In this document: piece after piece, positions 1 to 15,514 of the stretch
Numbering within the stretch: position 1 is the stretch's first letter
Layout of the letters: each line of letters opens with the position of its first letter
Assembly: GCA_014730275.1 (NCBI GenBank)
Contig: WJIL01000134.1
Location: 1 to 32,000, forward strand
From: Promethearchaeota archaeon
Lineage (GTDB): Archaea > Asgardarchaeota > Thorarchaeia > Thorarchaeales > Thorarchaeaceae
Length of the DNA: 32,000 nucleotides
Direction: 5' to 3'
Notes under the pieces: model-generated
What the model was told of the DNA's origin: nothing
Databases searched by the model: none
The model's input: the letters and a program-made list of their open reading frames with translations, nothing else
Program-made: the position numbers and the translations under genes

Positions 1-1499
1 GGACCTGATGAAGTCCCTTGTTTGGAGAGTGAGGACTTCTGCTTAGAAGAACCAGTCTTCCTTACAGCCTTCGGGGCTGGGCGCTTCTCCCGTGGGGGAG
101 TGGCCCACCGCCCTAGTCCTGTCTCATCCCTTAGATAAGGAGTGAGCTTGATCAAACGACGTGCGATGTTCAACGAGCCGTTCCTATCGGCATTGGTGCG
201 AAACCCACAGGTATGACAGACAAACAGCGATTGCTTGGGCCTGACACCCTTCTTCCCGCACTTCCAGCACATAATCGAGGTCCAGCTCTCAGGTACCACC
301 TGAAAGCGTGCGCCTTTGCCATCGACCGGCCACCCAAGCTGCTCAAGATTGTGCTTGAGGGTCTCAGTTATCCGTGCGAACGCCCAAGAGTGTATCATCC
401 CCCGGAACCTCCGCCCTTTGTAGTTACCGCGCCGAGCAGTGTACCTAATGTTTTTGAGCCGACCGATAGCCACGTACAGGGTGTATCGCTCAGACAGTTC
501 GGTGATGTAATCGAGCATCTGGCTGACCATGAACCGGTCATACTCCTTGGCTACGCGATAGCGCTTGCCTTTCAGTCCTCGGAGTCGCGCTGCTAGGTCA
601 TCGTGAGGGGTGGCATTGTTCTTCCTCGTATGCCTCTCGTACTGGAGCTGGGCAACCAGATCATCAAGCTCCTTGATACGCTCGACCTTGTCTTCCTGTA
701 CAAAGTACCTGGTCTTGCTGACCCTCCGTGGGGTCAATAGCGTCGTGCAGGCGGCTTTCTCAATACCAAGGTCGATACCGAGGACAGCCTCTGGGAGGTC
801 GTCATCAGGTGGTTCCGGTGTGTCAACTCTGACCGCAAAGGTCACCCACCATTTACCTTTTCTGTCCGTGAAAATCTGTAGTGCTTTGATTTCACCTCTT
901 GAAAATTGGTTGGTATGGAACGGCGAGACATTGAGCGGGATAAGTAGTCGGTCGTGAATCCTTCGTCCTTCCGGAACAGAGTCGAGGGAGTCCCGAAGGT
1001 CGAGCCACCACCGTGCAGTACTGGTCTCGTGCTGTCTGAGTGTGAACCGTTGCGAGAAGACCCATCGGGGGATACGCCGAGACGAAGATAGCCTCTTGCA
1101 GGGACGCGATGCCCTGCGGCCGTTCTTGTTGCGAAGCTCCAGATAACTCTCGTACATCTGGACAGCGGTCTGTCTGCATTCAATCAGCTCATTTGCTGAC
1201 ACTCTAGGAAATTGTTCTTTCATGTTATGGGGAACGGTCAGCCTCTGCTCGTACCCCTCTTTGACCTTAACGGCTGTCATGGTGAGCTTGTCCAGCTCAC
1301 CGGCATGGATCCTCGTGCTCTTCTTCCCTTTCAACAACTCGTCTTCGTGTTCCTCGATAACACCGAGGAAGGCATGGATGGCCCGTGTGTCACGACCAAC
1401 AATCTGCCTCAGTCGCTGTTTGGTGCGGCCTGTCATCTCCCCGTACTTGATTGGTACCTTGACACTGATTGTTGTCCCCTGAGACCGACCCATCGTCAT
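1..1499 (-). CDS. tnpB: TnpB-like RNA-guided endonuclease (IS200/IS605 family OrfB); C-terminal end lies beyond the window edge
   Basis: Not on the supplied ORF track because there is no in-window stop. My manual reverse-complement translation from the ATG at 1499 reads open to position 1, at least 499 codons: MTMGRSQGTTISVKVPIKYGEM... It contains a RuvC-I-like LGIDLGIEKAA, a zinc finger CWKCG..x..CHTCG and a RuvC-III-like NADRNGSLNIARR. I checked the frame at four separate places (positions 839, 599, 239 and the 1-180 tail). The plus-strand ORFs 213-596, 610-957 and 1212-1535 are antisense shadows of this gene. Confidence 0.85.
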   Translation of the reverse strand, partial: MTMGRSQGTTISVKVPIKYGEMTGRTKQRLRQIVGRDTRAIHAFLGVIEEHEDELLKGKKSTRIHAGELDKLTMTAVKVKEGYEQRLTVPHNMKEQFPRVSANELIECRQTAVQMYESYLELRNKNGRRASRPCKRLSSSRRIPRWVFSQRFTLRQHETSTARWWLDLRDSLDSVPEGRRIHDRLLIPLNVSPFHTNQFSRGEIKALQIFTDRKGKWWVTFAVRVDTPEPPDDDLPEAVLGIDLGIEKAACTTLLTPRRVSKTRYFVQEDKVERIKELDDLVAQLQYERHTRKNNATPHDDLAARLRGLKGKRYRVAKEYDRFMVSQMLDYITELSERYTLYVAIGRLKNIRYTARRGNYKGRRFRGMIHSWAFARITETLKHNLEQLGWPVDGKGARFQVVPESWTSIMCWKCGKKGVRPKQSLFVCHTCGFRTNADRNGSLNIARRLIKLTPYLRDETGLGRWATPPREKRPAPKAVRKTGSSKQKSSLSKQGTSSG

Positions 1500-1503
1500 C
1501 GCC

Positions 1504-1616
1504 TTATGATATTTAAGTTTCTAACCTGTTTGTAGGTAATTGAGTTCACTCCCCTGTTTGTTCTATGAGAGGTTATTGAACTCATACTTCTATGTATCAT
1601 TATGATATTTAAGTTT
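1504..1616. repeat. Exact 17-bp direct repeat TTATGATATTTAAGTTT at 1504-1520 and 1600-1616
   Basis: Read directly from the sequence. On the minus strand it reads AAACTTAAATATCATAA, which is TATA-box-like, immediately upstream of the tnpB start. An exact 17-mer pair is not expected by chance in 32 kb. Confidence 0.8.
1522..1560. repeat. Left copy of an imperfect direct repeat (core TAACCTGTTTGTAGGTAATTG) shared with 8081-8125
   Basis: By-eye alignment gives 18 of 21 columns identical in the core, plus a second short block (CACTCCC / CAACTCCC) at a different spacing. Statistically weak: a few such pairs are expected by chance in 32 kb. Confidence 0.3.
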
Positions 1617-2000
1617 ATTAAGCACATTCAAAATAAAGCATTATGAAGGCTCTCTATCCAAAAAGAAGAGATATGAAGCCTTATTATAAATTCAATTAAG
1701 GCTAGAAATACATATAAAGGATGAGTGTTTCCGTTGGTGTAAATAACCAAAAAAGATGAACAGAGGGCATATCAGTGCTGTTTTCGGTAGAGTTTGTAGA
1801 TACCGTGGTATTCCTTTGGTGGGAAAAGTACCTTGCCACCCGCTCATCATGCTGAAAAAATCTGGGCTTGCCCCTTGTTGAGACGACGAGGAGAGAACCC
1901 TTGAGGCCCACTATCGATTTCTGGACCGTGCTTTCGCGTGATATAACTGCTAGGAGTACTGTCACGTCAGGAAATTGTGTATTTCCGCCCGCTACCTTCT

Positions 2001-2059
2001 GTACAGGTGTACATAGCAAGTCTTCCTGCAACCATACCTACCGTACGGGTGTACATAGT
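2001..2059 (+). promoter_or_regulatory. Two 17-bp direct repeats (GTACAGGTGTACATAGC / GTACGGGTGTACATAGT) spaced 42 bp apart; candidate operator or promoter element of the 2080-7700 operon
   Basis: The repeats lie at 2001-2017 and 2043-2059 and match at 16 of 17 positions. Each contains the palindrome TGTACA. The second copy ends 21 nt before the ATG at 2080. Confidence 0.4.
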
Positions 2060-2079
2060 GCTGTTATGAGGGGTGGCAG

Positions 2080-2754
2080 ATGATCAGAAAGCGGACCGTC
2101 TTTCCATCAGCAGCCGAAGTGAACTCCGGAGAGGTTACTGACCCCAATGAGATCTATGTCAAATCCGTACTTTCCAAAGGCAAGGAAGATAGGACGGGGA
2201 TACTCATCGAGTCTGTATGGGGCGTGGAATACGAAACGAAAACCGTCCGTTTCGTCCGCGGGAACCTGATCACCCGGTTTACAAAACTCCCAATCACCTC
2301 ATCCGATGTTCCAGACAGGCACCTCCGATCAGCAAGCAAAGTAGCCCGAGCGATATTCGACTTGGAGCGGTTCAATGGGCTGGTACTCACTGAAGACCCT
2401 GATTTGAGCACAGTGTATAGGGCGGAACGGGACTCACACTCAGAGGTCTTTACAAGCAAACAGGACGCACGTATCTGGTGCTCACTCATCGACGCCGATG
2501 ACACGCGGATTGTCCCCGTCCAGCCGAGTGAAGCACCATTGGCAAAGGCTCGAAAGAATAGCGAAGATGTCCAGAATATAGTCCTCCGGCTCCTCTACCA
2601 GGCCCTCGCCGGGTTGGAAGCCCTAGACACGCTGCATTCGATGCGGCGACGCGGTACTGGGTCAGCCGAGCTGGAGGCGATATGGGAGAGGGTTTTCAAC
2701 AAAAGACAGTTCCCTGACAAGCTTGCCGAGGTATTGCATCAGGGACAGCAATGA
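2080..2754 (+). CDS. Hypothetical 224-aa protein, upstream partner of the giant ORF; no recognisable motif
   Basis: ORF on the supplied track. Its stop overlaps the start of the next ORF as ATGA (2751-2754), implying translational coupling. Its GC-rich composition matches the giant ORF. Confidence 0.7.
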   Translation: MIRKRTVFPSAAEVNSGEVTDPNEIYVKSVLSKGKEDRTGILIESVWGVEYETKTVRFVRGNLITRFTKLPITSSDVPDRHLRSASKVARAIFDLERFNGLVLTEDPDLSTVYRAERDSHSEVFTSKQDARIWCSLIDADDTRIVPVQPSEAPLAKARKNSEDVQNIVLRLLYQALAGLEALDTLHSMRRRGTGSAELEAIWERVFNKRQFPDKLAEVLHQGQQ

Positions 2755-5700
2755 GAAACAAGGCGGTAGCGGCTGAAATGAATGGCGGATACCCAAAAAA
2801 TCCCAGCAAGGTGTTTAGTAAGGCTATCTACACCGGCCTGTCCACCCTCGTCCAGCTTGCCCGCAAGCGAACCACCAAGCAGCCGAAAGTCCAGCGACTG
2901 GTGGCAGGCATCGAGGTGATGTGGCAGGAAGCCCGAGACGAACTGGAAGCGCTGAAAGATATACGTCCCCACGACTTTTCGCCAGTCCAGTCACGGGAGC
3001 CCAACATGCGGAAGAGCTTCCTTGGTGTGCTCTGGTGGACGACTTGGCCGTACGGGAACAAGGAGTTCAAGCGGGTGTACAGCTGGCAGGAGGGCACCAT
3101 CGGTCCGCTCAACGAGCTCCTGAACTTCGCCGGGGCAGAGCTCCGTCTCTTGGCTATCACCCGCTATCCCTTCCCTGAGCCCAACTATTACCAGATTTGG
3201 AAAACTCCAGATGAGCGGCGCATCGTTGTGGACACAAAGGTCGCCAAGAAGGTCCGGGTGGAGAACTACGAATCAGGATACGTGAAGGCGGGATACCCGG
3301 CAACGTCCAGTTCTCCCCGGGTTCTGCTCCGGCACCCGAGCCTGCCGAGCCTCGACTTTGTTGACATGATCCGTGCACACGTGGTCGAGCTCATCCGACA
3401 GTGCTTCATCCACAACGTCCCGAAGAAAGACGCCCAGCGGTATATCCGGCTCCTCATCTACAGGCTCAGGCCGTTCTTGGATTGGGTCTACACGGACGGG
3501 GATTATGGCCGCAAGCATTTCCATCCCGGGGCGACTCAGGAACTTATGAAGATCGTCAGGGAAATCCGCGCTATCTATTCCCGGACCACGGGGAAGATCA
3601 CTCGCCTGACCCACCAGCTCGACAAGGAGGACGGGGTTGAAAGTGCTGAGAAGTGTAGGGCTCCAACCGTGGCCGAGATAGTACGGCAGCTCAAGGCTGC
3701 TTTTGAACGCGACCCTTCTGACCAAACCAAACACATCATCTGTAGTATCTTGAAACGCATCAAGCTGAGTGACCTGAAGCACGACGAGCTGAGGGCATTC
3801 GTTGACCAGATAGTACAACAGAAAGAAGAAGGAAAACGGGACAACAAGGAAACGAAGGACAGGGAGAACGCCCTGACAGACCGCGACGCAGAGCATTTCG
3901 TGGAGAAAATCGAGACGCTGTCGAGCCGGCAGGGCAACTACTGGCACAAATTCTTGTTCAGTGACATGTATCACCCATACTCACTCAAGGCGGCTGTCTT
4001 CTATGGTGACAAGGGCTTGGATACACCTGATGACACGCTGATAGCAGCAGAGGTCCCCGTAAGCGGCACAAAAGGAACGGGCAAGGCAGATATCGTGGTG
4101 TTTGTCCGGCGGGATGTAGGTGACCGTGCGGTATGGACCCCTGTGATGCTCCTTGATATCAAGACGAAGACAGGGATAGACTGGGAACTTCTAGGTGTGC
4201 GACCTAGGTCGAAAAAGGACGCGAGAGTTCCGCATTTCTATCTCAGCAAGCGCTCCCTGAGCCAAGAGGAATGGGAGCATATCGTAGCCACCGCCCCTTC
4301 GAAAAGGAGTCGTGGACAGCTTGATGCATATGGGACGAACCTCCTGCAGGAGTACAAGAGTATCATTGCAGACCCCGAAACCCCAGAGAAGCTGTATCGG
4401 GGTGTGGTTCTCGTCGATGCAAATGAGGACAGGTTCACCGTTTTTGACGCATTGCCTGGGTTGATTCGGCAAGTCCTTGACAGAATCAGTTCTGCTTCCG
4501 GTTCATCCAACACTCCTATCGCATATACGATCACAACATCCGAAGATCCAGAACAAGGGACGAGCCCACATATTGCACTCGTCCTGGAGGACACAACAGG
4601 GCCCTACTCTCTCATGGAAAAGACCATGCCGCTTATGGAACTCGAAGGAGCTGACCCCTTCGCATCACGAGAGAAAGACGATACCCTGTTCACCCTCTAC
4701 CTATCCGTAGCGTCATCTATCTCGGCGGGACCATCAGCAGCATGGGTTTCAAGGAACTGGCACTTGCTGAATCATCTCCGTGAGCAGTTCGAGCACACTG
4801 GGAACACTCCTGACATTGTGTGGGTGGACCTGCTCGGTGATCTCCCAACGCAGGAACTTGCGATAACACGGCTGAGGCTTGACATGCAGCGGTTATCTCC
4901 AGCATGGAAGGAGCATATCCAGAGGCTCAGAGGATTCCTGAAAAACATCCGTATAGTCAATCTAAAGGACAAAATGATTGACGCCGTCTTCGGTACAGCC
5001 CAAGATACCATCCATAACTTGGAAGTAACACTACGGGAAGAGCTGTCCACAAAGGAAACAAAAATTGTGGTCATCGATGGCTGGGCAGACCTCCGGGATA
5101 TGAGCCCTCAGCGGTGTGCCAATACGCTGAAGGCCCTTGAGCATGCACTGGTCGAATGTTTGAAAGGGGCAGCTGACGAGGTGGTCTGGCTTGATAGACC
5201 AGTTCCGTTGCCAAAGACATCAGCGACGTATCAGAAACGGAAGATGAATCCCCTACCTCACAACTCCCCGCGGCACCGCCTGCTGGACGAGATCATCTGG
5301 AACCTGCCGACCCCGCCCAAAGTGCTGGGCTGGAAAACTCCACTGCGGGAAGATGTCCGAGTGATAGTCCAGGACACACCGACCAGTGCCCCTCCCTGGA
5401 AGGCCAGTATCTTCGTACCACACCTCACAGCCTGGGCAGAACGTTTCCGGGGATACTCGCGAAAGGACAGGACGGTGAGCTTTGAGGAGGTACGAGAAGC
5501 CCAGCTCCGACCCATGTACGGCCGAGGTGTGATGCTCAGCTCGGTGTCCTGCAATGTCTCGTCACTCCCGCCGTACACCACTGAGGATGTCTGTGCCGAC
5601 GCTACCTTGCTGGCACCGAGCCTTACTCGACGGGATGAGGACATGGATGAAGTGGAGTATCCAGAGACAGACTGGTTTCAAGTCCGGAGAATGGAAGCAA

Positions 5701-7700
5701 AGGACCCAGAAGGATACGACAGTGACGGACGCGAACTGCTCAGGCACGTGACGTTCAGAGTCCTTGGCAACGCAGAGCCAGTGGACAAAGATGAAAGGAA
5801 GGAAGGCGACCCAGGGCCTCTCTACACCTCACCTGATACCATCACCAGAGGCTGGAGACGATGGAAGCCCAGTGTTGAAGAACAACAGGAGAAGGAGTGG
5901 GACGACAGCACACGGGGAGTATTGAGGCCTCCTCCGGTCGCTCCTACCCGGCCGGAGTACATCGATACGTTCGAGACGCGGAGACGGGAGGTCATTCGCC
6001 TACGCAATACTGCACGATTTCTTAGACGAATCACCCCTAGACATGAGGCCAGAGAATGGAAGAAGCTACTGGAGGAGCTTGCAGAGATTGCAGAAAGGGC
6101 TTTCACGCCAAGGGGAAGGATGTGGCCTCCAATCAAAATACTACGAAAAATCAAGCAAAAGTTACAAACGAACTTCAAATCGAGTTCCATGTGGAAGATC
6201 CTGCGAGGAGTACGGGAAGATGTCCTTATCGATTCATACGTGCATATCAGTAATACCCTTGCTGAAGTCAAGAAACATAACCCGGACGTCCTATCCCTCT
6301 ATGGCAACCATTTCGTCTTGCTATTGCTTGCACTTGAAAGGAAGTGGTTGAGGCAGAACCAAGGACCTGTGCTCACCATCCTTTGGCGGGTGTTATGGCG
6401 CTGGCAACTTGTGCAGATGGGGTTTGCCACGAAGAAGCAGGAGCTTATCGACACGAAATACGATGTCCATGCCATCTGGTCGAACCTAGTCTGGAGGGCA
6501 AAGGTCCTTGCAGAAACAGTCCGCTTCACCCGGCCAACGGATATGGTTAGGCGTGCGGTAATGGTCTCAGATGAGCAGGAGAGCGATTTCTGGATGTTCA
6601 TCGAGGACGCACCGGGGAGCGACAGGTTTGAGGTAGCATATGTCCCCCTAGCGCGTGGCGAGAACTTCTGGGGCTGGCACCCAGCTGAAACAGACCTGAA
6701 AGTGTTGGCAGATAAGGCAGAACGGACAGGAACAACGAACGAGACATACCACGTTATCACGAGAGCAGGGGGAAAAGACGTCCTGTGGAACTGGTACGTT
6801 AATCCCGCGAGTGGCGAATACTGGGATCCCAGTTGCATTATCGAGTATGGGCCGTCCCCGCCCGATAGGCCTTTTCCGATACGGTGGGTGAAGAAATCCA
6901 GAGTGCCAAACGAGCTCCGCCCCCTCACTCCCCTGCCGTTTGACCAGGAAAGCCAGAGGGTCGAATACGAACGAATCAGGGGACACCTCAAAGAAATCGG
7001 GGTCTGTGGTGAACGGGTGAGGGAGGTGGAATGCCGGGTATCACTGGATACGCGCGAAAGAGCATATGAGATACAGTTCATCGATTCGAACAGCGGAGAG
7101 ACGGTGACAGTCTACAAGGCCAAGCGGACAGCCGAAGCACTCCAGGTGCTGAGGGGCCCGCTGTCAGGGCAACCGCCCTTCGAGACCGAAGAAGGTGAGG
7201 TTTTGATATGGGACGCGCGCCAGGACGTGGAGTATACAGATGTCGAGACAGAGGGCCGGGTGTTCAGTCTCAGTATGCTCAGGCCCGTTGTACACAGGAA
7301 CAAAGTGGTGACCGGGACCATTGTCATCCCGAGGACGGCAGACGAGCTCCTGGAGAGCTCTGCAGGGGAAGAGGTGAAACTCGTTTTTACTCCTGAACGG
7401 GCGTTGGACCATTATCCGGAATATAGCACTCGCTGGAGAGTATGGTTTCTTGAAGACAAATATGGAGAAACACTGCTGGGACTGGACGATACGCGGCTGA
7501 GCATCTACGATGTCGGCCACCTGATTGAGAGCAGGCAGCTCTATGATAGTGACACCAAGCAGTTGCATCCCATGTATGTCATCTTGAACAGGGTCAAGGA
7601 CTTCGCTACTCAGGCTGATCTTGCGGATTTTCCATTGTTTGCAGATAAGATCAAAGAGAGCAAGAAGAGGAAAGAAATGAAGCAGACCCACAGCAGATGA
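2751..7700 (+). CDS. Giant 1649-aa hypothetical protein with an internal RecB/Cas4-like PD-(D/E)xK nuclease core (about aa 430-530); the remainder is unassignable
   Basis: Uninterrupted 4950-nt ORF. The motif series is E434 (AAEVPV), G-K-A-D447-IVVF, LL-D469-I-K471-TKTG and Q523-LDA-Y527, which corresponds to the RecB-family motifs E, GxhD, (D/E)xK and QxxxY. I found no Walker A/B, methyltransferase or helicase motifs by eye. Confidence 0.85.
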   Translation: MRNKAVAAEMNGGYPKNPSKVFSKAIYTGLSTLVQLARKRTTKQPKVQRLVAGIEVMWQEARDELEALKDIRPHDFSPVQSREPNMRKSFLGVLWWTTWPYGNKEFKRVYSWQEGTIGPLNELLNFAGAELRLLAITRYPFPEPNYYQIWKTPDERRIVVDTKVAKKVRVENYESGYVKAGYPATSSSPRVLLRHPSLPSLDFVDMIRAHVVELIRQCFIHNVPKKDAQRYIRLLIYRLRPFLDWVYTDGDYGRKHFHPGATQELMKIVREIRAIYSRTTGKITRLTHQLDKEDGVESAEKCRAPTVAEIVRQLKAAFERDPSDQTKHIICSILKRIKLSDLKHDELRAFVDQIVQQKEEGKRDNKETKDRENALTDRDAEHFVEKIETLSSRQGNYWHKFLFSDMYHPYSLKAAVFYGDKGLDTPDDTLIAAEVPVSGTKGTGKADIVVFVRRDVGDRAVWTPVMLLDIKTKTGIDWELLGVRPRSKKDARVPHFYLSKRSLSQEEWEHIVATAPSKRSRGQLDAYGTNLLQEYKSIIADPETPEKLYRGVVLVDANEDRFTVFDALPGLIRQVLDRISSASGSSNTPIAYTITTSEDPEQGTSPHIALVLEDTTGPYSLMEKTMPLMELEGADPFASREKDDTLFTLYLSVASSISAGPSAAWVSRNWHLLNHLREQFEHTGNTPDIVWVDLLGDLPTQELAITRLRLDMQRLSPAWKEHIQRLRGFLKNIRIVNLKDKMIDAVFGTAQDTIHNLEVTLREELSTKETKIVVIDGWADLRDMSPQRCANTLKALEHALVECLKGAADEVVWLDRPVPLPKTSATYQKRKMNPLPHNSPRHRLLDEIIWNLPTPPKVLGWKTPLREDVRVIVQDTPTSAPPWKASIFVPHLTAWAERFRGYSRKDRTVSFEEVREAQLRPMYGRGVMLSSVSCNVSSLPPYTTEDVCADATLLAPSLTRRDEDMDEVEYPETDWFQVRRMEAKDPEGYDSDGRELLRHVTFRVLGNAEPVDKDERKEGDPGPLYTSPDTITRGWRRWKPSVEEQQEKEWDDSTRGVLRPPPVAPTRPEYIDTFETRRREVIRLRNTARFLRRITPRHEAREWKKLLEELAEIAERAFTPRGRMWPPIKILRKIKQKLQTNFKSSSMWKILRGVREDVLIDSYVHISNTLAEVKKHNPDVLSLYGNHFVLLLLALERKWLRQNQGPVLTILWRVLWRWQLVQMGFATKKQELIDTKYDVHAIWSNLVWRAKVLAETVRFTRPTDMVRRAVMVSDEQESDFWMFIEDAPGSDRFEVAYVPLARGENFWGWHPAETDLKVLADKAERTGTTNETYHVITRAGGKDVLWNWYVNPASGEYWDPSCIIEYGPSPPDRPFPIRWVKKSRVPNELRPLTPLPFDQESQRVEYERIRGHLKEIGVCGERVREVECRVSLDTRERAYEIQFIDSNSGETVTVYKAKRTAEALQVLRGPLSGQPPFETEEGEVLIWDARQDVEYTDVETEGRVFSLSMLRPVVHRNKVVTGTIVIPRTADELLESSAGEEVKLVFTPERALDHYPEYSTRWRVWFLEDKYGETLLGLDDTRLSIYDVGHLIESRQLYDSDTKQLHPMYVILNRVKDFATQADLADFPLFADKIKESKKRKEMKQTHSR

Positions 7701-7843
7701 CCGCGTGGTGGCTGCAAAAGCCGTAGATTTGTGAAGCTCATTACACAACCTACAATCCCAACGTACGTATCCGGACTCCTGCCATGCGTGAAGGATATCG
7801 ATTTGATGCATGCAGGATGGTCTATCTCCCACACGAGGTAACA

Positions 7844-7906
7844 GGAAATCTTACAGAAATCTTACACTTCTATACGCCCATTTATTTAGGATTCTGTAAG
7901 ATTTCC
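7844..7906. repeat. 13-bp perfect inverted repeat GGAAATCTTACAG / CTGTAAGATTTCC; the left arm is tandemly duplicated (GAAATCTTACA x2)
   Basis: Left arm 7844-7856, tandem second copy 7856-7866, right arm 7894-7906. It lies about 145 nt downstream of the giant ORF stop. Confidence 0.7.
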
Positions 7907-9084: not shown

Positions 9085-9198
9085 GGCCGGTCACAGCCGT
9101 TGGATCCCACCGGAACCCATTCCGAACTCCGCAGTTAAGTCCAACGACGTTGCGGGACATGTGCGCGCTAGCGCGCGTGACAGGCCCGCAAACTGGCC
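9085..9198 (+). rRNA. rrf: 5S ribosomal RNA (stand-alone, no adjacent 16S/23S)
   Basis: The segment CCCACCGGAACCCATTCCGAACTCCGCAGTTAAGT matches the universal 5S loop-C / helix-III core. The terminal helix GGCCGGT / ACTGGCC closes the molecule with one G-U pair. An internal helix TTGCGGG / CCCGCAA encloses a CGCGC-TAG-GCGCG hairpin. Ends are accurate to about 2 nt. Confidence 0.88.
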
Positions 9199-9302
9199 AT
9201 TCTCTATATTGATGATTTCTTTTCCACGAAAGGAGAGAGCAGACCTATTACATTTTCACGGGCAACTAAACGTTTTAATGGCAACAACAATCTTCTCCTT
9301 TC

Positions 9303-10433
9303 ATGCTCTTACAACTATTCGGCGCCGATGCAGGAGAATTCAGCTGGATTATCCAGTTAGTGTTCTTTGTCTTCATCATGGTGCTCAGCCTGTATGGCCA
9401 ACGGATACAGATGTGGCAGTGGCTGAAGCAGATAGAAGCAGGTTTGATTGAACTGAAACAGATGGCAATTAAATCAAGGCAGACCGCCATTGATACGTTT
9501 AAGAAGTACGGTAGAGAAGAGGAAGTAGTGGCGGAAGAAGTAGACCGATGGTTGGACTATTTCACCATCCGGCCTGTAGATCTTGATCCCGCGGGAGTTC
9601 TTGAACGGCTTGAACATATCCTTGAGGAGAGGAAAGACCGCTTTGAAGAATTCACCGAGGAGTTGGCACCAGAAGCACCAGACGAAGTGAGGAGCAATCT
9701 GGAGAACACACTCGAAGTGACTCAGGTACTGTCTCTGATTTTCCGCGTTGTGAGACATTACTATCTCTTGGGCAAAAAACACGGCAGTCAGATTATGATC
9801 ATGCAGATACAGATGCAGCTGCCCGAATTACTCCGACTCGCCAAAGCATACTTCGATGCGATGGGAGCTTTCTCGGAAGGGAAGCCGATAGGCGACGGTA
9901 TAGGTCCCTTGGCAGTAACCAAGTTTGCGCGAGAACAGGGTATAGATAGCGAGAGTTATGTTTCTGAAATCACCAGGGGCGTTGGCTATTACCCTGTGGA
10001 ATACGAGGGGCGAACAATCTACGCACTTCGTGCAACCGGCCCGGGTGGCACAGTAGGAAAGCCGGGCTTCGCAGTAAAGAAGTTGGTAGATGAGAACCCA
10101 GGCAAAATTCGAAGGATAATAACCGTTGATGCGGCACTCAAACTCGAAGGAGAAGAACTTGGCAGAGTTTCTGAAGGTACAGGAGCGGCCATTGGAGATC
10201 CTGGACCCGAGAAACACGCCATAGAGGAAGTTGCAACGAAGAACGGTATTGGCCTTGAAGCAGTTGTGATAAAGGAAAATGAAACTGCAGCCGTTGGTGT
10301 GATGGATAAGAAAATCCTCGATGCCGTACCTGAGGTAATAGAACGGATTAAGGATGCAATCCATAAGCGAACGAAAACTGGAGACCATATCATTCTCGCG
10401 GGTATAGGCAATACTATCGGCATAGGACTGTGA
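9303..10433 (+). CDS. Conserved archaeal membrane-anchored protein, DUF1512-like (family assignment from memory of size and architecture, unverified)
   Basis: 376-aa ORF with an N-terminal TM helix (FSWIIQLVFFVFIMVLSLY). A TATA-like TTTTAAT sits about 30 nt upstream of the ATG, which suggests a leaderless transcript. Confidence 0.75.
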   Translation: MLLQLFGADAGEFSWIIQLVFFVFIMVLSLYGQRIQMWQWLKQIEAGLIELKQMAIKSRQTAIDTFKKYGREEEVVAEEVDRWLDYFTIRPVDLDPAGVLERLEHILEERKDRFEEFTEELAPEAPDEVRSNLENTLEVTQVLSLIFRVVRHYYLLGKKHGSQIMIMQIQMQLPELLRLAKAYFDAMGAFSEGKPIGDGIGPLAVTKFAREQGIDSESYVSEITRGVGYYPVEYEGRTIYALRATGPGGTVGKPGFAVKKLVDENPGKIRRIITVDAALKLEGEELGRVSEGTGAAIGDPGPEKHAIEEVATKNGIGLEAVVIKENETAAVGVMDKKILDAVPEVIERIKDAIHKRTKTGDHIILAGIGNTIGIGL

Positions 10434-10439
10434 TTCAAA

Positions 10440-10871
10440 ATGAGCAAGTTACTGAAGGCAATTGGAATCGTATTTGCTGCGGCTGGAGCTATAGTAGTCT
10501 TCTATGGCATGACGTTTGGAGAAGATCTCTGGTCATATGTTCTGTTCTTTCTCGGCTTAGTGGGTATGTCGATAGGATTCAGTCTTTTGACAGCAGGAAG
10601 AGGTGGCGAAGAGATGGAACCGCCGCCGCCAACCGTTACCGAGATTCGATGTTCATCTCCAGACTGTGACTTCAAAGAAATCCGTGATTTCGAAGAAGGA
10701 GATTATGTTCTGAAAGTACTGGATAAGGGATGCCCCAAATGCGAGGGGAAAATGGTGATTGAGGGGGTCTACGTCGTGCGTGAGGAAGAAGAGGCGGAAA
10801 AAGGGCGCTTCTCAGTCCCCCAAGGTCAAGGTGAGGGTCCGCCCCCGTCCAACAAACACGGTATGTTCTGA
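10440..10871 (+). CDS. Small membrane protein with a C-terminal zinc ribbon (CSSPDC...CPKCEG)
   Basis: ORF on the track with two N-terminal hydrophobic helices and a CxxxxC...CxxC pair. Its 3' end overlaps the convergent MetAP gene by 60 nt. Confidence 0.6.
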   Translation: MSKLLKAIGIVFAAAGAIVVFYGMTFGEDLWSYVLFFLGLVGMSIGFSLLTAGRGGEEMEPPPPTVTEIRCSSPDCDFKEIRDFEEGDYVLKVLDKGCPKCEGKMVIEGVYVVREEEEAEKGRFSVPQGQGEGPPPSNKHGMF

Positions 10872-11711
10872 CTGGCTTACAGGTCGGTTCCCCTTCTCAA
10901 CCAGAACGGGATAGGCTTTGATTGCATTTGAATCCAAAAGCTTCGTAAATTCTTTCTCAACATTCAGGCCTCCATCCCGTGTTCCAACCCATCTGGCTGC
11001 AAACGGAAGAGGGCCATACGTCTTCAGCAAGTGGTCTCTCAGTTTCTGGGTCACGTCATCAAGCGAGGCTTCGGTTCGCGTATTTGAGAAGATGTAGGTA
11101 TATTTTGTATCCGCTACTTTTCCAGTACCGGTTGTGGCGAAAGGTTCAATCGCATATATGTCGCCCACCTCTATTTTGTCAGTGAATCGCTGTTTCACAT
11201 TCGGAACCTGTTTACCAGCATGGAGTCGAAACCGTTTCATCTGGTGACCGCTGAGATTACGAATAGGTCTCAAGCCATAGGCACGGATTACTTCCTCTAT
11301 TTTCGATCCCACTTCACCCAACGATACACCGGGTCGCATGAGACTGATAGCTTCTTGTAACGCATCATCCGTTGCAGCAATGAAGCCTTCCAATTCCCCA
11401 TCCATATCTACCGTACGAGCCGTATCCGCTATGTAGCCATCCACATGAACTCCAATATCGAGCTTCACCAAGCCGCTATCAGGGATTGTGGAATCGTCAT
11501 TTCGGGGAGAGGTGTAATGGGCGGCAATATGATCAATAGACACATTGCAGGGAAATGCTGGTTTCGCCCCCATTTCAGTGATTCTGGATTCAGCATACTC
11601 ACATACTTCCAGAATATTCATACCAGGTTCTAATTTGTCCGCAGTATCATCCCGTACTTTTGCCGCGATTTTGCCGGCTTTCCGCTGAGCTGCTTTCGGT
11701 TCTTCAACCAT
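10812..11711 (-). CDS. map: Methionine aminopeptidase, archaeal type 2 (copy 1)
   Basis: Pita-bread fold metal ligands are recognisable: KLDIGVHVDGYIAD, SGHQM, AIEPF and SQSEHTV. The length of 299 aa is typical of archaeal MetAP. Confidence 0.9.
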   Translation of the reverse strand: MVEEPKAAQRKAGKIAAKVRDDTADKLEPGMNILEVCEYAESRITEMGAKPAFPCNVSIDHIAAHYTSPRNDDSTIPDSGLVKLDIGVHVDGYIADTARTVDMDGELEGFIAATDDALQEAISLMRPGVSLGEVGSKIEEVIRAYGLRPIRNLSGHQMKRFRLHAGKQVPNVKQRFTDKIEVGDIYAIEPFATTGTGKVADTKYTYIFSNTRTEASLDDVTQKLRDHLLKTYGPLPFAARWVGTRDGGLNVEKEFTKLLDSNAIKAYPVLVEKGNRPVSQSEHTVFVGRGRTLTLTLGD

Positions 11712-11723
11712 GTATTTATCCTC

Positions 11724-12617
11724 CTAGAGCATTGTGGTGACAATAGCTCCGTCTTCTGCGACGAATACTGTATGTTCTTTCTGGGAGACCATGCCATCCT
11801 TCCCATCCAACAGTACCGGGTAGCCAAGTATCACCCTTTTACGTAGCAGAGTTTTGAGTTGGTGCGTCATATCCAAGTTCGTATCATATATCCACCGCGA
11901 AGCCCAAGGTAAGGATCCGAATAGACGTCGCGCTTTATCGCGGAGTCGTTTAGTTTCTCCTTCCAGATGTGTTCCACATGATAAGTTATTCCTGAAAATA
12001 TACATCCTCCGGTCACTAGTAATGGAACCGTCTCCATCTGTGGCAAAGGGCTCGATTGCAAAGGTATCGCCAGCCCTCATTGTGCTCCCCATTTTTGAGC
12101 CAACATTTGGTACATTGCGACCAGCATGTAGCGTCCATGGTTTGAGTTCATGGCCTGACAGCTGGTACACTGGTTGTAAATCGTGATTTCGAATTGCTTC
12201 CTCAATGGCGGCGCCAACTTGACCGGTCTTGATGCCGGGGCTGACTACCTCGATTGCGGCTTGAAGGGCATCCTCCACTGCGGCAATGTAGTGTCCAAAA
12301 GAACCGTCTAAATCAATCGTACTAGCCGTATCAGATATGTGACCGTTAACATGGGCACCGAGATCAATCTTGATCAGTCCTTTTTCCGGGATTTTCCGTG
12401 TATCTCCGTAGGGACTGGAGTAATGGGCTGCCTCACTGTTTATGGAAACGTTGCAGGGGAAAGCAGGATATGCACCTGTTTCGCGTATTTTTTGCTCCGC
12501 AAATTCACATATATCAATGACGCTTCTCCCCGGCGTCACGAGAGTTACGGTTTCATCAAGGACCCTTGCTGCGATTCGTCCTGCTTCTAGTGAGTCCGGG
12601 TGCGGTTTAGGTGCCAT
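11724..12617 (-). CDS. map: Methionine aminopeptidase, archaeal type 2 (copy 2, tandem paralog)
   Basis: KIDLGAHVNGHISD, SGHEL, AIEPF and SQKEHTV are all present, so every ligand position is retained. It lies 12 nt from copy 1 on the same strand. Confidence 0.9.
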   Translation of the reverse strand: MAPKPHPDSLEAGRIAARVLDETVTLVTPGRSVIDICEFAEQKIRETGAYPAFPCNVSINSEAAHYSSPYGDTRKIPEKGLIKIDLGAHVNGHISDTASTIDLDGSFGHYIAAVEDALQAAIEVVSPGIKTGQVGAAIEEAIRNHDLQPVYQLSGHELKPWTLHAGRNVPNVGSKMGSTMRAGDTFAIEPFATDGDGSITSDRRMYIFRNNLSCGTHLEGETKRLRDKARRLFGSLPWASRWIYDTNLDMTHQLKTLLRKRVILGYPVLLDGKDGMVSQKEHTVFVAEDGAIVTTML

Positions 12618-14215: not shown

Positions 14216-15514
14216 TTGGGAGCAGGCGACTTTGATAATTCAACTGCCAAGTACGTTATTAGAGCGAAGATTGAGATAGACGGCGTTGTTGACAAGCCAG
14301 ATGTCGTTGGTGCAATATTCGGTCAAACAGAAGGATTACTGGGCGAAGACTTGGATCTCAGGGAACTTCAACGAAGCGGACGTATTGGTAGAATTCAGAT
14401 TGGAATCAAATCAGAGAAAGGAAAAAGCAAAGGAGAAATCGTAATACCCGTCTCGATGGATAGAACTGCAACTGCTATCCTTGCTGCGTCAATGGAAACA
14501 GTTGATCGGGTTGGTCCATGTTCAGCTGAGGTGACTCTGCAGAAAGTAGAAGATATCCGCGGAGCTAAGCGCAGAAGAGTGGTCAGCAGAGCAATTAGTA
14601 TCTTAAAAGGATGGGAAGAAGAAATCGCTCCAGGCGCTGATGAGATAACGGATGCGGTGACGAAGGCAAAGAAGAGGGGTATCACCAAGTACGGTGAAGA
14701 TAAACTCCCCGCAGGCCCCAGTATGCCCGATAGCGACGAAGTAATCATAGTCGAGGGGCGGGCCGATGTCATTAATCTGATGAAGAGTGGTGTAACGAAT
14801 ACAATCTCAGCAGAAGGAACGAATATCCCCGAGTCGATTTCGGAGCTTTCTAAGAAAAAGGGAAAAGAGATCACAGCCTTTTTGGATGGTGACCGAGGTG
14901 GTGACCTGATACTTCGAGAACTCATGCAGGTTGCGGACATTGATTATATTGCACGAGCACCAAAGGGCAAGGAAGTTGAGGATTTGGATCGGAAAGCGGT
15001 ATCTAGAGCTCTTAAGAGGAAAATACCCGCTAAACAGGCCCTAAGCTTGCTAGAGAAAGACAAGAAGAAAGAAGAAGAAGAAGAAGAAGAAGAAGAAGAG
15101 AAGAAAGAGATTAGCAGGAAGAAAAGGACACCCAGCAAAAAGAAAGAGAAGAAACCTTCGCGCAAGAAGAAAGAAGAACGAAAACCACGTAAGAAACGAC
15201 CCCCAGAACGTAAGAAGGAGCGTGTAAACAAGGTTTATGTCAAGAAGGCGAAGGAACTGAAAGAGAGCTTCAAAGCTGCAGTCTTTGACAGGAATGACGA
15301 TCTCGTCAAGGAGTGCAAAGCTGCTGAACTAACGGATGTATTGAATTCGCTAGATGAAGCTAAAGCCATTGTTCTTGATGGTGTTGTAACACAGCGCCTT
15401 GTTGATACTGCGAAGGCGAAAGGTGTCAAAATCATTATTGCTGCGGCAACAGCTGAAATAGAGAGTAAACCTCGAGCCATGAAGCTAATTATGTTCGAGA
15501 AACTTAATCTATAA
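14216..15514 (+). CDS. dnaG: Archaeal DnaG primase / Toprim protein with a Lys/Glu-rich low-complexity insertion
   Basis: The N-terminal signature is KYVIRAKIEIDGVVDKPDVVGAIFGQTEGLLGEDLDLRELQRSGRIGRI. Toprim segments are IIVEGRADV and LDGDRGGDL. The start is TTG, with AAGGAG 8 nt upstream. Confidence 0.9.
   Translation: MGAGDFDNSTAKYVIRAKIEIDGVVDKPDVVGAIFGQTEGLLGEDLDLRELQRSGRIGRIQIGIKSEKGKSKGEIVIPVSMDRTATAILAASMETVDRVGPCSAEVTLQKVEDIRGAKRRRVVSRAISILKGWEEEIAPGADEITDAVTKAKKRGITKYGEDKLPAGPSMPDSDEVIIVEGRADVINLMKSGVTNTISAEGTNIPESISELSKKKGKEITAFLDGDRGGDLILRELMQVADIDYIARAPKGKEVEDLDRKAVSRALKRKIPAKQALSLLEKDKKKEEEEEEEEEEKKEISRKKRTPSKKKEKKPSRKKKEERKPRKKRPPERKKERVNKVYVKKAKELKESFKAAVFDRNDDLVKECKAAELTDVLNSLDEAKAIVLDGVVTQRLVDTAKAKGVKIIIAAATAEIESKPRAMKLIMFEKLNL
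15071..15097 (+). repeat. (GAA)9 microsatellite inside dnaG, encoding a poly-Glu run
   Basis: Read directly from the sequence; it is in frame as Glu codons. Confidence 0.95.

Follow-up and report, generated by a model that had tools for sequence, protein, structure and literature searches.

We analysed a 32,000-nt stretch of DNA from a Promethearchaeota archaeon (contig WJIL01000134.1, positions 1 to 32,000; hereafter the window), which has a G+C content of 47.7% and contains a single very long open reading frame (ORF) on its forward strand. The encoded giant protein of 1,649 amino acids (aa) stands next to a TnpB-like gene and carries, within aa 376-585, an invariant set of RecB-type motifs that probably marks a catalytically active PD-(D/E)xK nuclease domain, as judged from family-wide conservation and predicted structure. 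Considering the further domains of the protein and its genomic context, we favour, with a probability of roughly 0.6, the explanation that an active RecB-like nuclease carries out DNA cleavage or end processing coupled to Cas1-type integration.

An invariant RecB-type motif set in the giant protein

The initial annotation had read an ordered E / GxhD / (D/E)xK / QxxxY set from the translation of window positions 4050-4331, and every residue and coordinate of that reading matches the sequence. E434 lies in the context LIAAEVPV, D447 (4089) in GKADIVVFV, D469 (4155) and K471 (4161) in VMLLDIKTKTG (4143-4175), and Q523 and Y527 (4329-4331) delimit the pentapeptide QLDAY. A loose ordered regular expression (E..G..D..[DE].K..Q...Y) matches the protein once and was also matched by 127 of 5,000 shuffled sequences (2.5%); the bare pattern alone is mildly unlikely by chance. 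When the hydrophobic contexts of the motifs were required as well, none of 5,000 shuffles matched. The decisive point is conservation, which confirms that the motif set is real and far beyond chance. Among 56 full-length homologues of 32-82% identity, G444, D447, K471, Q523 and Y527 are present throughout, E434 is found in 55, and position 469 is occupied by Glu in 42 and by Asp in 14. The same holds for 201 domain sequences reaching down to ~22% identity, where D447, K471, Q523 and Y527 are retained in all 201, E434 in 197 (98%), and position 469 is always acidic (129 Glu and 72 Asp), so that the residues singled out by the initial annotation proved invariant or nearly so. An Asp/Glu swap at position 469, with nothing else tolerated, is what one would expect of a catalytic carboxylate. 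Across these 201 sequences, just nine domain columns reach a conservation of at least 97%. In the widest full-length set (28 sequences, 19-40% identity), 18 of the 1,649 columns are invariant, eight of them located in the nuclease-like domain and six in the Cas1-like motifs described below.

RecB-like nucleases share the signature (His) / E / GxhD / hhh(D/E)xK / QhxxY, in which the role of the histidine has been described for Cas4 and RecB, the residue being His62 in Cas4 SSO0001 and His94 in Pcal_0546 (PMC4176176). In the giant protein, H399 on the N-terminal helix of the domain is present in 200 of the 201 sequences (99.5%) and may, by analogy, be equivalent to these two histidines. The spacing between K471 and Q523 amounts to ~50 residues, whereas the corresponding (D/E)xK-QxxxY gap of Cas4 comprises only 11-12 residues (H. 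volcanii Cas4; Pcal_0546). That this long gap reflects an insertion, as had been suggested at the outset, is borne out by a conserved hairpin (aa 475-501) and a helix (aa 505-513) between the two motifs, with P494, K500, E507 and W508 as conserved residues. Equally correct was the remark that the flanks carry no cysteine cluster of the Cas4 type: aa 376-585 are devoid of cysteine, and two cysteines are found in aa 300-650. Cas4 proteins use four conserved Cys to coordinate an Fe-S cluster (PMC4176176), and the absence of cysteine from the domain therefore argues that it is not a Cas4-type Fe-S nuclease. Together with the lack of profile similarity to Cas4, this led us to reject a Cas4 identity.

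Predicted fold of the nuclease-like domain

For aa 376-585, AlphaFold2 modelling based on 31 homologues reached a predicted local distance difference test score (pLDDT) of 90.6 and a predicted template modelling score (pTM) of 0.84. A second AlphaFold2 model covering aa 1-1200 (pLDDT 80.2, pTM 0.77) returned domain elements in agreement with those of the isolated-domain model. The predicted succession of elements (Table 1) fits a PD-(D/E)xK core (alpha-beta-beta-beta-alpha-beta), each signature residue falling on the element where it is canonically found. In the model, the strands of the domain are unusually long, comprising 11-15 residues.

Cas1-like and RecA-like regions of the giant protein

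According to the conservation profile, the most conserved stretch of the giant protein is its N-terminal region. Here, an E83xxxR87K motif is followed by KR108xY110, P119xN121xxLN125F and H195...LD202FVD205MIR208AHVVE213 (L-D202-xx-D205-xx-R208-xxxx-E213), an arrangement that satisfies the order of the Cas1 catalytic motifs (Glu; RxY/PxNxLL; His ... LDxx(D/E)xx(R/K)xxxx(D/E)). The counterparts in H. volcanii Cas1b are, in the same order, EGDARKRYY, KREY, TNALISF and H...LSLDIADIFKPILAD, with the last motif being in register. Even the widest alignment shows no substitution of G102, R108, N121, G128, H195 or R208 and hardly any of E83, R87, D202 or D205. The region is split by a beta insertion at aa ~145-192. 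We compared giant-protein profiles with Cas1 and Cas4 in hhalign, using as references E. coli Cas1, the H. volcanii pHV4 proteins Cas1b and Cas4, and genes from eleven other plasmids, both as 120-member haloarchaeal families and as hand-collected sets of 13 Cas1 and 10 Cas4 sequences. Runs were done with and without family-specific insertions, and reversed or unrelated sequences served as controls. Against Cas1, the expected motif alignment was recovered over 55-83 columns with P = 0.05-0.06, compared to 0.23-0.48 for the controls. Searches with HMMER and against Pfam, NCBIfam and the PDB returned nothing linking the region to Cas1, and a canonical Cas1 motif was not found elsewhere in the retrieved loci. 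The Cas1 assignment is thus based on the motifs and on the literature link discussed below, not on a significant score.

C-terminal to the nuclease-like domain, the aa 1-1200 model pointed to a RecA-like domain. A Foldseek search of the PDB returned Rad51 paralogues, Dmc1, RadA, DnaB, FlaH and KaiC, with E-values down to 3e-4 and a probability of 1.00, and the matches listed (top 50) were all RecA-like. The Walker A position reads SVASSISAGPSAAW and lacks GK[ST], the Walker B-like strand IVVIDGW is kept, and D693 and G777 (of DGW) are invariant or nearly so. To judge from model and sequence, aa ~640-900 is a RecA-fold domain with a degenerate P-loop, which may represent a pseudo-ATPase or a non-canonical nucleotide site.

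The degenerate P-loop bears on the question of whether the adjacent nuclease-like domain is itself active. Inactivated PD-(D/E)xK domains occur in other proteins, and the loss of the Walker A lysine illustrates that modules of the giant protein can decay; the PD-(D/E)xK fold might have been kept merely to bind or recognise DNA, without catalysis of its own, while all chemistry would be left to TnpB and the Cas1-like domain. However, inactive derivatives lose the acidic and Lys residues, whereas not one of the 201 sequences has a substitution at D447, D/E469 or K471, and the interchange of Asp and Glu at position 469 is exactly what catalysis tolerates. We consider a non-catalytic role of the domain highly improbable and retain the assignment as a probably active nuclease.

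A TnpB-like partner with a structured 3' RNA

The giant protein is the member of a family of 1,400-2,350-aa proteins that was found almost only in metagenome-assembled genomes (MAGs) of Thorarchaeota. Two relatives are 81-82% identical to the window protein and more than 170 share 32-39% identity; these relatives measure 1,350-1,900 aa, and none of them contains a Pfam domain. We retrieved 66 loci from GTDB genomes and, from other assemblies, a further five (L numbers below). All 66 derive from Thorarchaeota-type MAGs except for two contigs of one MAG labelled 'uncultured Ignavibacteria bacterium' (L043 and L057; CAYOSZ010000100.1 and CAYOSZ010000368.1), the label of which is probably a binning error. 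In every locus with sufficient 5' flank (~55 loci), the giant gene is preceded by a TnpB-like gene in divergent orientation. The TnpB-like gene of the window follows this arrangement, being divergent from the giant gene, matching Pfam Cas12f1-like_TNB and OrfB_IS605 and aligning with TnpB and Cas12f structures in the PDB. The distance between the two start codons is 135-310 bp and increases to 1.1-1.3 kb in the sub-lineage of the window, where a gene of 224 codons is located in between. This additional ORF is limited to one sub-lineage (the window, L003, L006, L007, L008, L010, L031 and L033) and missing from most loci; its homologues in L007, L008, L010, L031 and L033 occupy the equivalent position and share 32-39% identity, and Pfam, PADLOC and the PDB contain no match to it. 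L008 and L033 were considered as exceptions to the TnpB pairing and rejected, because the 224-aa gene fills their short upstream flank.

The TnpB-like proteins fall into two size classes, a long one of 714-718 aa and a short one of 542-578 aa, to which the TnpB-like protein of the window belongs. RuvC-I D241, RuvC-III D436 (NADxN) and the zinc finger CxxC..CxxC are invariant. Long-class proteins contain the canonical RuvC D-E-D residues, with the Glu in FENL or FEDL. In the short class, including the copy in the window, Gly-Arg replaces the canonical RuvC-II Glu (YVAIGRLKNI). A conserved Glu in 'VPExWTS' might substitute for the lost residue. Directly after the stop codon of short-class tnpB, a block of ~150 nt is conserved better than the protein and folds into a structure with compensatory changes in 16 of 33 predicted pairs. 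The structured RNA, delineated in L003 (6823-6995, minus strand) and 15 other loci (alignment A5), overlaps the 3' end of tnpB and reaches ~130 nt downstream. It ends in ...GGAACACAGAAGTTTCTT..CAGTTG..GTTCACTCA, with GTTCACTCA held in the loop of the terminal hairpin, and appears omega-RNA-like. In 16 of 30 short-class loci, GTTCACTCA is located at +65 to +107, one more has it at +8, and most others contain TTCACTC variants. Within 300 nt downstream of tnpB, GTTCACTCA was absent from the long-class loci. These features were seen in relatives of the window, as the tnpB-distal end of the unit, including GTTCACTCA and the 3' RNA, lies beyond the window itself.

Possible mobility of the two-gene unit

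The TnpB-like gene, the giant gene and, in some cases, the 224-aa gene form a unit of ~7-8 kb. A single alignment of 83% identity connects window positions 3-7893 to L006; beyond this point the two sequences are unrelated and their flanking genes differ. Since the alignment ends at 7893, the right boundary of the unit is placed ~193 nt beyond the giant stop codon. A perfect 13-nt inverted repeat, GGAAATCTTACAG (7844-7856) and CTGTAAGATTTCC (7894-7906), straddles this boundary, and an 11-nt tandem repeat is present at 7845-7866. Thorarchaeota MAGs hold two to six copies of the unit each, which are mostly old paralogues. Some copies within the same genome are 87-93% identical over 7.2-7.6 kb, with sharp ends ~0-130 nt from both stop codons. 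In one MAG, L068 (7402-15008) is 88% identical to L047 (7622-15235); its TnpB match is in two pieces and the giant frame stops early, and L068 is, to judge from its sequence, a decaying copy of the unit.

In L001/L015/L054, L018, L026 and L030, the TnpB-distal end of the unit directly adjoins a tRNA gene whose 3' end is oriented toward the unit, and six more loci have tRNA genes within a few hundred nt of the unit. By a rough estimate assuming about one tRNA gene per 80 kb, well below one locus would be expected to show such adjacency by chance. In L018 and L026, the unit is flanked by a 55-75-nt direct repeat that corresponds to the 3' half of tRNA-Gly plus ~32 nt (L026: 1100-1215 and 8330-8440; L018: 7050-7165 and 14275-14385), the second copy lying just past the giant stop codon. 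The ~32 nt of this repeat include the reverse complement of GTTCACTCA, that is, element-internal sequence. The repeat could be an att site, the remnant of a nested older insertion or a repeat-guide-repeat arrangement. Terminal inverted repeats common to both unit ends were in general not found among the loci tested, nor is there a conserved element downstream of the giant gene beyond close relatives. Weak inverted matches between the unit flanks were seen in L001 (7470-7620 vs 14680-14900, score 47), L019 and L051; in the latter two, the match consists of the 15-mer AGCCCCTGTAGTGTA, which resembles a tRNA 5' fragment. The balance of the comparisons favours the unit being a mobile or formerly mobile element with site-specific integration, a behaviour that would fit a Cas1-type integrase.

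The same loci can be viewed differently, namely as a domesticated, non-mobile RNA-guided system, in which TnpB with its guide RNA finds the target in a defence or regulatory context and the giant protein has been recruited as a DNA-degrading effector. Consistent with such a system are the strict pairing of the two genes, the short divergent promoter region and the fact that genomes hold several old paralogues, all of them under strong purifying selection. Moreover, a second nuclease could compensate for the missing RuvC-II Glu of the short-class TnpB, and many exapted TnpBs with conserved partners are described by Altae-Tran et al. 2023 (PMC10691335). Domestication is, however, difficult to reconcile with 87-93% identical same-genome copies that have sharp boundaries, one of them decayed, and with an 83%-identical unit in unrelated neighbourhoods. 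The tRNA genes abutting the unit and the att-like direct repeats of L018 and L026 likewise speak against it, the invariant Cas1-type catalytic motifs point to integration chemistry, and no PADLOC defence model matches. Overall, we regard a domesticated effector system as unlikely and continue with the unit as a mobile or formerly mobile element.

Relation to aCas1-TnpB loci and other systems

Asgard aCas1 was reportedly first described by Makarova et al. in 2020 (CRISPR J 3:156). Altae-Tran et al. 2023 (PMC10691335) describe Asgard aCas1-TnpB loci with two groups of TnpB and a conserved GTTCACTCA downstream of tnpB, propose aCas1 as the transposase of a distinct transposon family and mention that the loci are sometimes flanked by repeats. 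Because the TnpB partner and the GTTCACTCA downstream of tnpB match the published loci, the giant protein is very probably the aCas1 of that study. Restriction to Asgard archaea, the adjacent TnpB and GTTCACTCA are alike, and the two TnpB groups would match the two size classes seen here, whereas our long-class loci lack GTTCACTCA within 300 nt. In the text accessible to us, which does not include the 2020 paper, we found no mention that aCas1 contains a PD-(D/E)xK or RecA-like domain. The family and its association with TnpB are already part of the literature, which limits the novelty of the whole system. In light of the Cas1-like motifs, the RecA/Rad51-like domain, the invariable TnpB pairing and the match to aCas1-TnpB loci, the earlier description of the protein as an otherwise unassignable scaffold no longer holds.

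Casposons prefer the 3' ends of tRNA genes as targets. The unit resembles them in having a Cas1-type integrase as presumed transposase, in its location at tRNA 3' ends and, for one lineage, in its direct repeats. In contrast to casposons, however, it contains no family-B DNA polymerase, no terminal inverted repeats were detected, and a TnpB gene is always present; compared to casposase, the giant protein is about four times larger and includes nuclease and RecA-like modules. A casposon identity was rejected for the lack of the polymerase and the terminal inverted repeats and the restriction of direct repeats to L018 and L026. A functional analogy, and no more than that, can be drawn to TnsA of Tn7-like elements, a PD-(D/E)xK endonuclease that serves transposition by cutting the strand left by the main transposase. 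Sequence and fold give no evidence of kinship with TnsA, and its partner in Tn7 is a DDE transposase, not a Cas1-like protein.

Proposed mechanism

Based on the conserved residues, we propose an active site composed of H399, E434, D447, D/E469, K471, Q523 and Y527. With RecB and Cas4 as a guide, the divalent metal would be coordinated by D447, D/E469, the main-chain carbonyl of residue 470 and probably H399. K471 would position the water or activate it, and Q523 and Y527, located on the next helix, would keep the scissile strand of the DNA in place. The nuclease domain might cleave or trim DNA in cis and thus provide free 3'-OH ends for the Cas1-like integrase domain, during either excision of the element or trimming of its ends, in functional parallel to Cas4 acting with Cas1 and TnsA with TnsB. 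TnpB would contribute RNA-guided cutting of target or empty sites. This end-processing role we put forward tentatively, at somewhat less than even odds. The initial annotation had cast the nuclease as the effector, a framing that is superseded because of the Cas1-like, RecA-like and TnpB context; rather than acting as a stand-alone effector, the domain more plausibly serves a Cas1-type integrase or transposase as a module for cleavage or end processing. Cleavage of RNA, the other activity that had been considered, received no specific support.

Taken further, the giant protein could be a self-contained cut-and-paste machine that defines a new class of Asgard mobile elements. The RecB-like domain would excise the element or trim its ends, the Cas1-like domain would integrate it beside tRNA genes, the degenerate RecA-like domain would help to handle DNA, and TnpB, guided by the 3' RNA, would cut empty sites and thereby promote homing. 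In L018 and L026, the end of the TnpB 3' RNA runs into the flanking tRNA sequence. If true, an RNA-guided nuclease and a Cas1-type integrase would be coupled in nature outside CRISPR, but we rate this scenario as somewhat unlikely. More generally, Cas1 is at the root of CRISPR adaptation and TnpB at the root of Cas12, and an element that joins a Cas1-like integrase, TnpB and Cas4-like nuclease chemistry bears on how adaptation modules and RNA-guided nucleases came to cooperate. The residues H399, D447, D/E469, K471, Q523 and Y527, together with E83, H195, D202, D205 and E213 of the Cas1-like region, offer handles for point mutants of these uncharacterised Asgard proteins.

Weighing the proposed coupling of a RecB-like nuclease to integration

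Several results weigh against an active RecB-like nuclease that is coupled to Cas1-type integration. Despite the high pLDDT of the domain model, Foldseek returned no match at E <= 0.001 in the PDB or BFVD, the best E-values being 0.16 and 0.03, respectively, and the best TM score below 0.3; Dna2, AF1548, phage exonuclease and Vsr-type homing endonucleases appeared as chance-level matches only. Scans of profile libraries, which covered the whole protein, the domain, 31 domain sequences and 28 diverse full-length members, revealed no significant similarity to a nuclease family in Pfam, PADLOC, NCBIfam or PHROGs. At E <= 10, the 31 domain and 28 full-length sequences yielded only HSDR_N and HSDR_N_2 in Pfam, with E-values of 0.17-0.22 in three members. 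Sequence searches of the PDB with the single sequence, the domain profile and the full-length profile gave nothing significant. In hhalign, the comparison of the domain with Cas4 failed to reach significance both for the 120 haloarchaeal sequences (P = 0.18) and for the ten diverse ones (P = 0.23). Turning to the integrase part, canonical Cas1 has a beta-rich N-terminal domain preceding the helical catalytic domain. Such a domain is absent from the AlphaFold2 model of the giant protein, the N-terminus of which is helical (aa 18-39, 45-68 and 77-101) with the insertion at aa 145-192 as its only beta structure, and at P ~0.05 the link to Cas1 is statistically unproven. With regard to mobility, flanking direct repeats are confined to one lineage, with none in the other 32 of the 34 loci tested, and the age and strong conservation of most within-genome paralogues would suit a domesticated system as well. 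Finally, we infer the coupling of nuclease and integrase from the domain fusion alone.

The negative searches would also be expected if the conserved residues formed a site of another type, such as a ligand-, protein- or nucleic-acid-binding site or that of another hydrolase, on a fold other than PD-(D/E)xK, with the motif pattern being convergent or coincidental. Both Foldseek searches lack a significant restriction-endonuclease-like match, all profile searches are negative, the strands are unusually long (11-15 residues), a 40-residue insertion is present, and the loose expression is found in 2.5% of shuffles. Against a coincidence stands the fact that, in a family whose members have drifted apart to ~20% identity, the invariant columns coincide precisely with the five signature positions and the His on the helix, and that these residues are predicted to lie on the canonical elements in canonical order. 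Furthermore, the strict motif is not produced by shuffling, and the only local alignments to Cas4 found by hhalign pair ExK with ExK and QxxxY with QxxxY. PD-(D/E)xK families are notoriously hard to detect by sequence. A different fold or site therefore seems quite improbable to us, and we adhere to the PD-(D/E)xK assignment. By this token, a perfectly conserved PD-(D/E)xK site can elude every standard profile and Foldseek search.

For the fold, the initial annotation had anticipated a restriction-endonuclease-like core, and the alpha-beta-beta-beta-alpha-beta order was indeed recovered in two AlphaFold2 models, but no significant Foldseek match accompanied it. Its assignment to the RecB family is similarly divided: motifs, invariance and topology agree, whereas a significant sequence-profile or fold link to RecB, Cas4, lambda-exonuclease or another PD-(D/E)xK family was not obtained. 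When the insertion was removed, hhalign against Cas4 gave P = 0.05-0.07, compared to 0.25-0.39 for the controls, and the only segment aligned was the one pairing D469xK471 with ExK and QxxxY with QxxxY, a result that is suggestive, not significant. Searches of the Cas1 and Cas4 sets with hmmsearch yielded nothing significant, and the global mode of hhalign was uninformative. In an exhaustive HMMER search of 1.84 billion representative proteins, the profile of aa 376-585 detected 118 proteins; these were essentially all giants, with the domain at the same relative position, and therefore provide no bridge from the nuclease-like domain to another family. From motif, invariance and topology, we file the domain as a putative orphan RecB-like branch of the PD-(D/E)xK superfamily.

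Compared to RecB-family nucleases (RecB C-terminal domain, AddA/AddB, lambda exonuclease/YqaJ, Dna2, Pfam PDDEXK_1), the domain shares the ordered signature and the predicted core order. It differs in having no significant profile or fold match, in its ~40-residue conserved insertion and very long strands, and in its location in the middle of a 1,649-aa protein, where it is not attached to a helicase. With Cas4 (PF01930/DUF83) and Cas4-Cas1 fusions, of which we compared the 525- and 553-aa I-MYXAN proteins of Rhodothermus and Nostoc, it has in common the RecB motifs including QhxxY and the physical coupling to a Cas1-type domain, and trimming of DNA ends for a Cas1 integrase is a plausible common role. 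In contrast to these fusions, the Cas1-like region of the giant protein precedes the nuclease, reversing the order, a hidden Markov model match is lacking, and the unit holds neither a CRISPR array nor Cas2.

Features of the window

Table 1. Coordinates of the two-gene unit in the window and predicted elements of the nuclease-like domain (AF2, AlphaFold2; strand given where applicable)
Feature	Residues of giant protein	Window position	Strand	Content	Basis or remark
TnpB-like gene		3..1493	-	5' part, ~497 of ~543 codons; truncated at the left edge of the window	tblastn, 82.7% identity over 498 aa to the neighbour in L003
Divergent intergenic region		1494..2079	.	two repeat pairs	
224-aa ORF		2080..2754	+	overlaps start of giant ORF by 4 nt (ATGA)	no detectable family
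Giant ORF	1,649 aa	2751..7700	+		identical to NCBI 'hypothetical protein GF309_15200, Candidatus Lokiarchaeota archaeon'
Cas1-like region	~75-290	2973..3620	+	invariant or near-invariant motif columns	collinear with real Cas1
Nuclease-like domain, whole	376-585	3876..4505	+		conservation profile and AF2 models
Candidate extra metal ligand	399	3945..3947	+	H399 in GNxWH on N-terminal helix of domain	conserved in 200/201
Motif span	434-527	4050..4331	+	E434 (4050), G444xxD447 (4080-4091), D469xK471 (4155-4163), Q523xxxY527 (4317-4331)	
Family-specific insertion between (D/E)xK strand and QxxxY helix	~475-517	4173..4301	+	beta-hairpin and short helix	conserved P494, K500, E507, W508, P516
RecA/Rad51/DnaB/KaiC-like alpha/beta domain	~640-900	4668..5450	+		Foldseek; boundaries estimated from secondary structure
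Right end of unit		7701..7906	.		L006 homology ends at 7893, 193 nt past stop codon
Long helix	377-402			H399; G395 also on helix	AF2 secondary structure
Short helix	~412-422				AF2 secondary structure
beta1	429-438			E434	AF2 secondary structure
beta2	443-456			D447	AF2 secondary structure
beta3	459-473			D469, K471	AF2 secondary structure
Extra hairpin	475-483 / 493-501				AF2 secondary structure
Helix	505-513				AF2 secondary structure
Long helix	518-538			Q523, Y527	AF2 secondary structure
beta4	549-556			nearly invariant D556 at end	AF2 secondary structure
C-terminal helix	561-581				AF2 secondary structure

The divergent intergenic region of the window contains two pairs of repeats. Adjoining the TnpB start, the TATA-box-like TTATGATATTTAAGTTT occurs twice, at 1504-1520 and 1600-1616 (96 nt apart). 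Just upstream of the 224-aa ORF, GTACrGGTGTACATAG is likewise present twice, at 2001-2016 and 2043-2058 (42 nt apart), and L006 has three copies of the 42-nt unit at 9169-9306. These repeats are possibly operator and promoter elements of the divergent region.

The C-terminal 450 residues of the giant protein (aa 1201-1649, window 6351-7700) belong to no detectable family and include the invariant R1468, and some divergent family members (P0177, P0214 and P0221) have TPR repeats added at the C-terminus. The database labels of close relatives do not agree, as the window protein is assigned to Lokiarchaeota and its 81%-identical relative in L006 to Thorarchaeota. Elsewhere in the window, two neighbouring paralogous genes on the minus strand (10812-12617) code for M24 metallopeptidases of the methionine-aminopeptidase type (299 and 297 aa). 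The other genes are ordinary archaeal housekeeping genes, encoding a DUF1512 protein, a metallo-beta-lactamase fold protein, a Toprim-domain protein, OsmC, an AAA+/Mg-chelatase-like ATPase, an eRF1-domain protein (eRF1/Pelota family) and a radical SAM protein.

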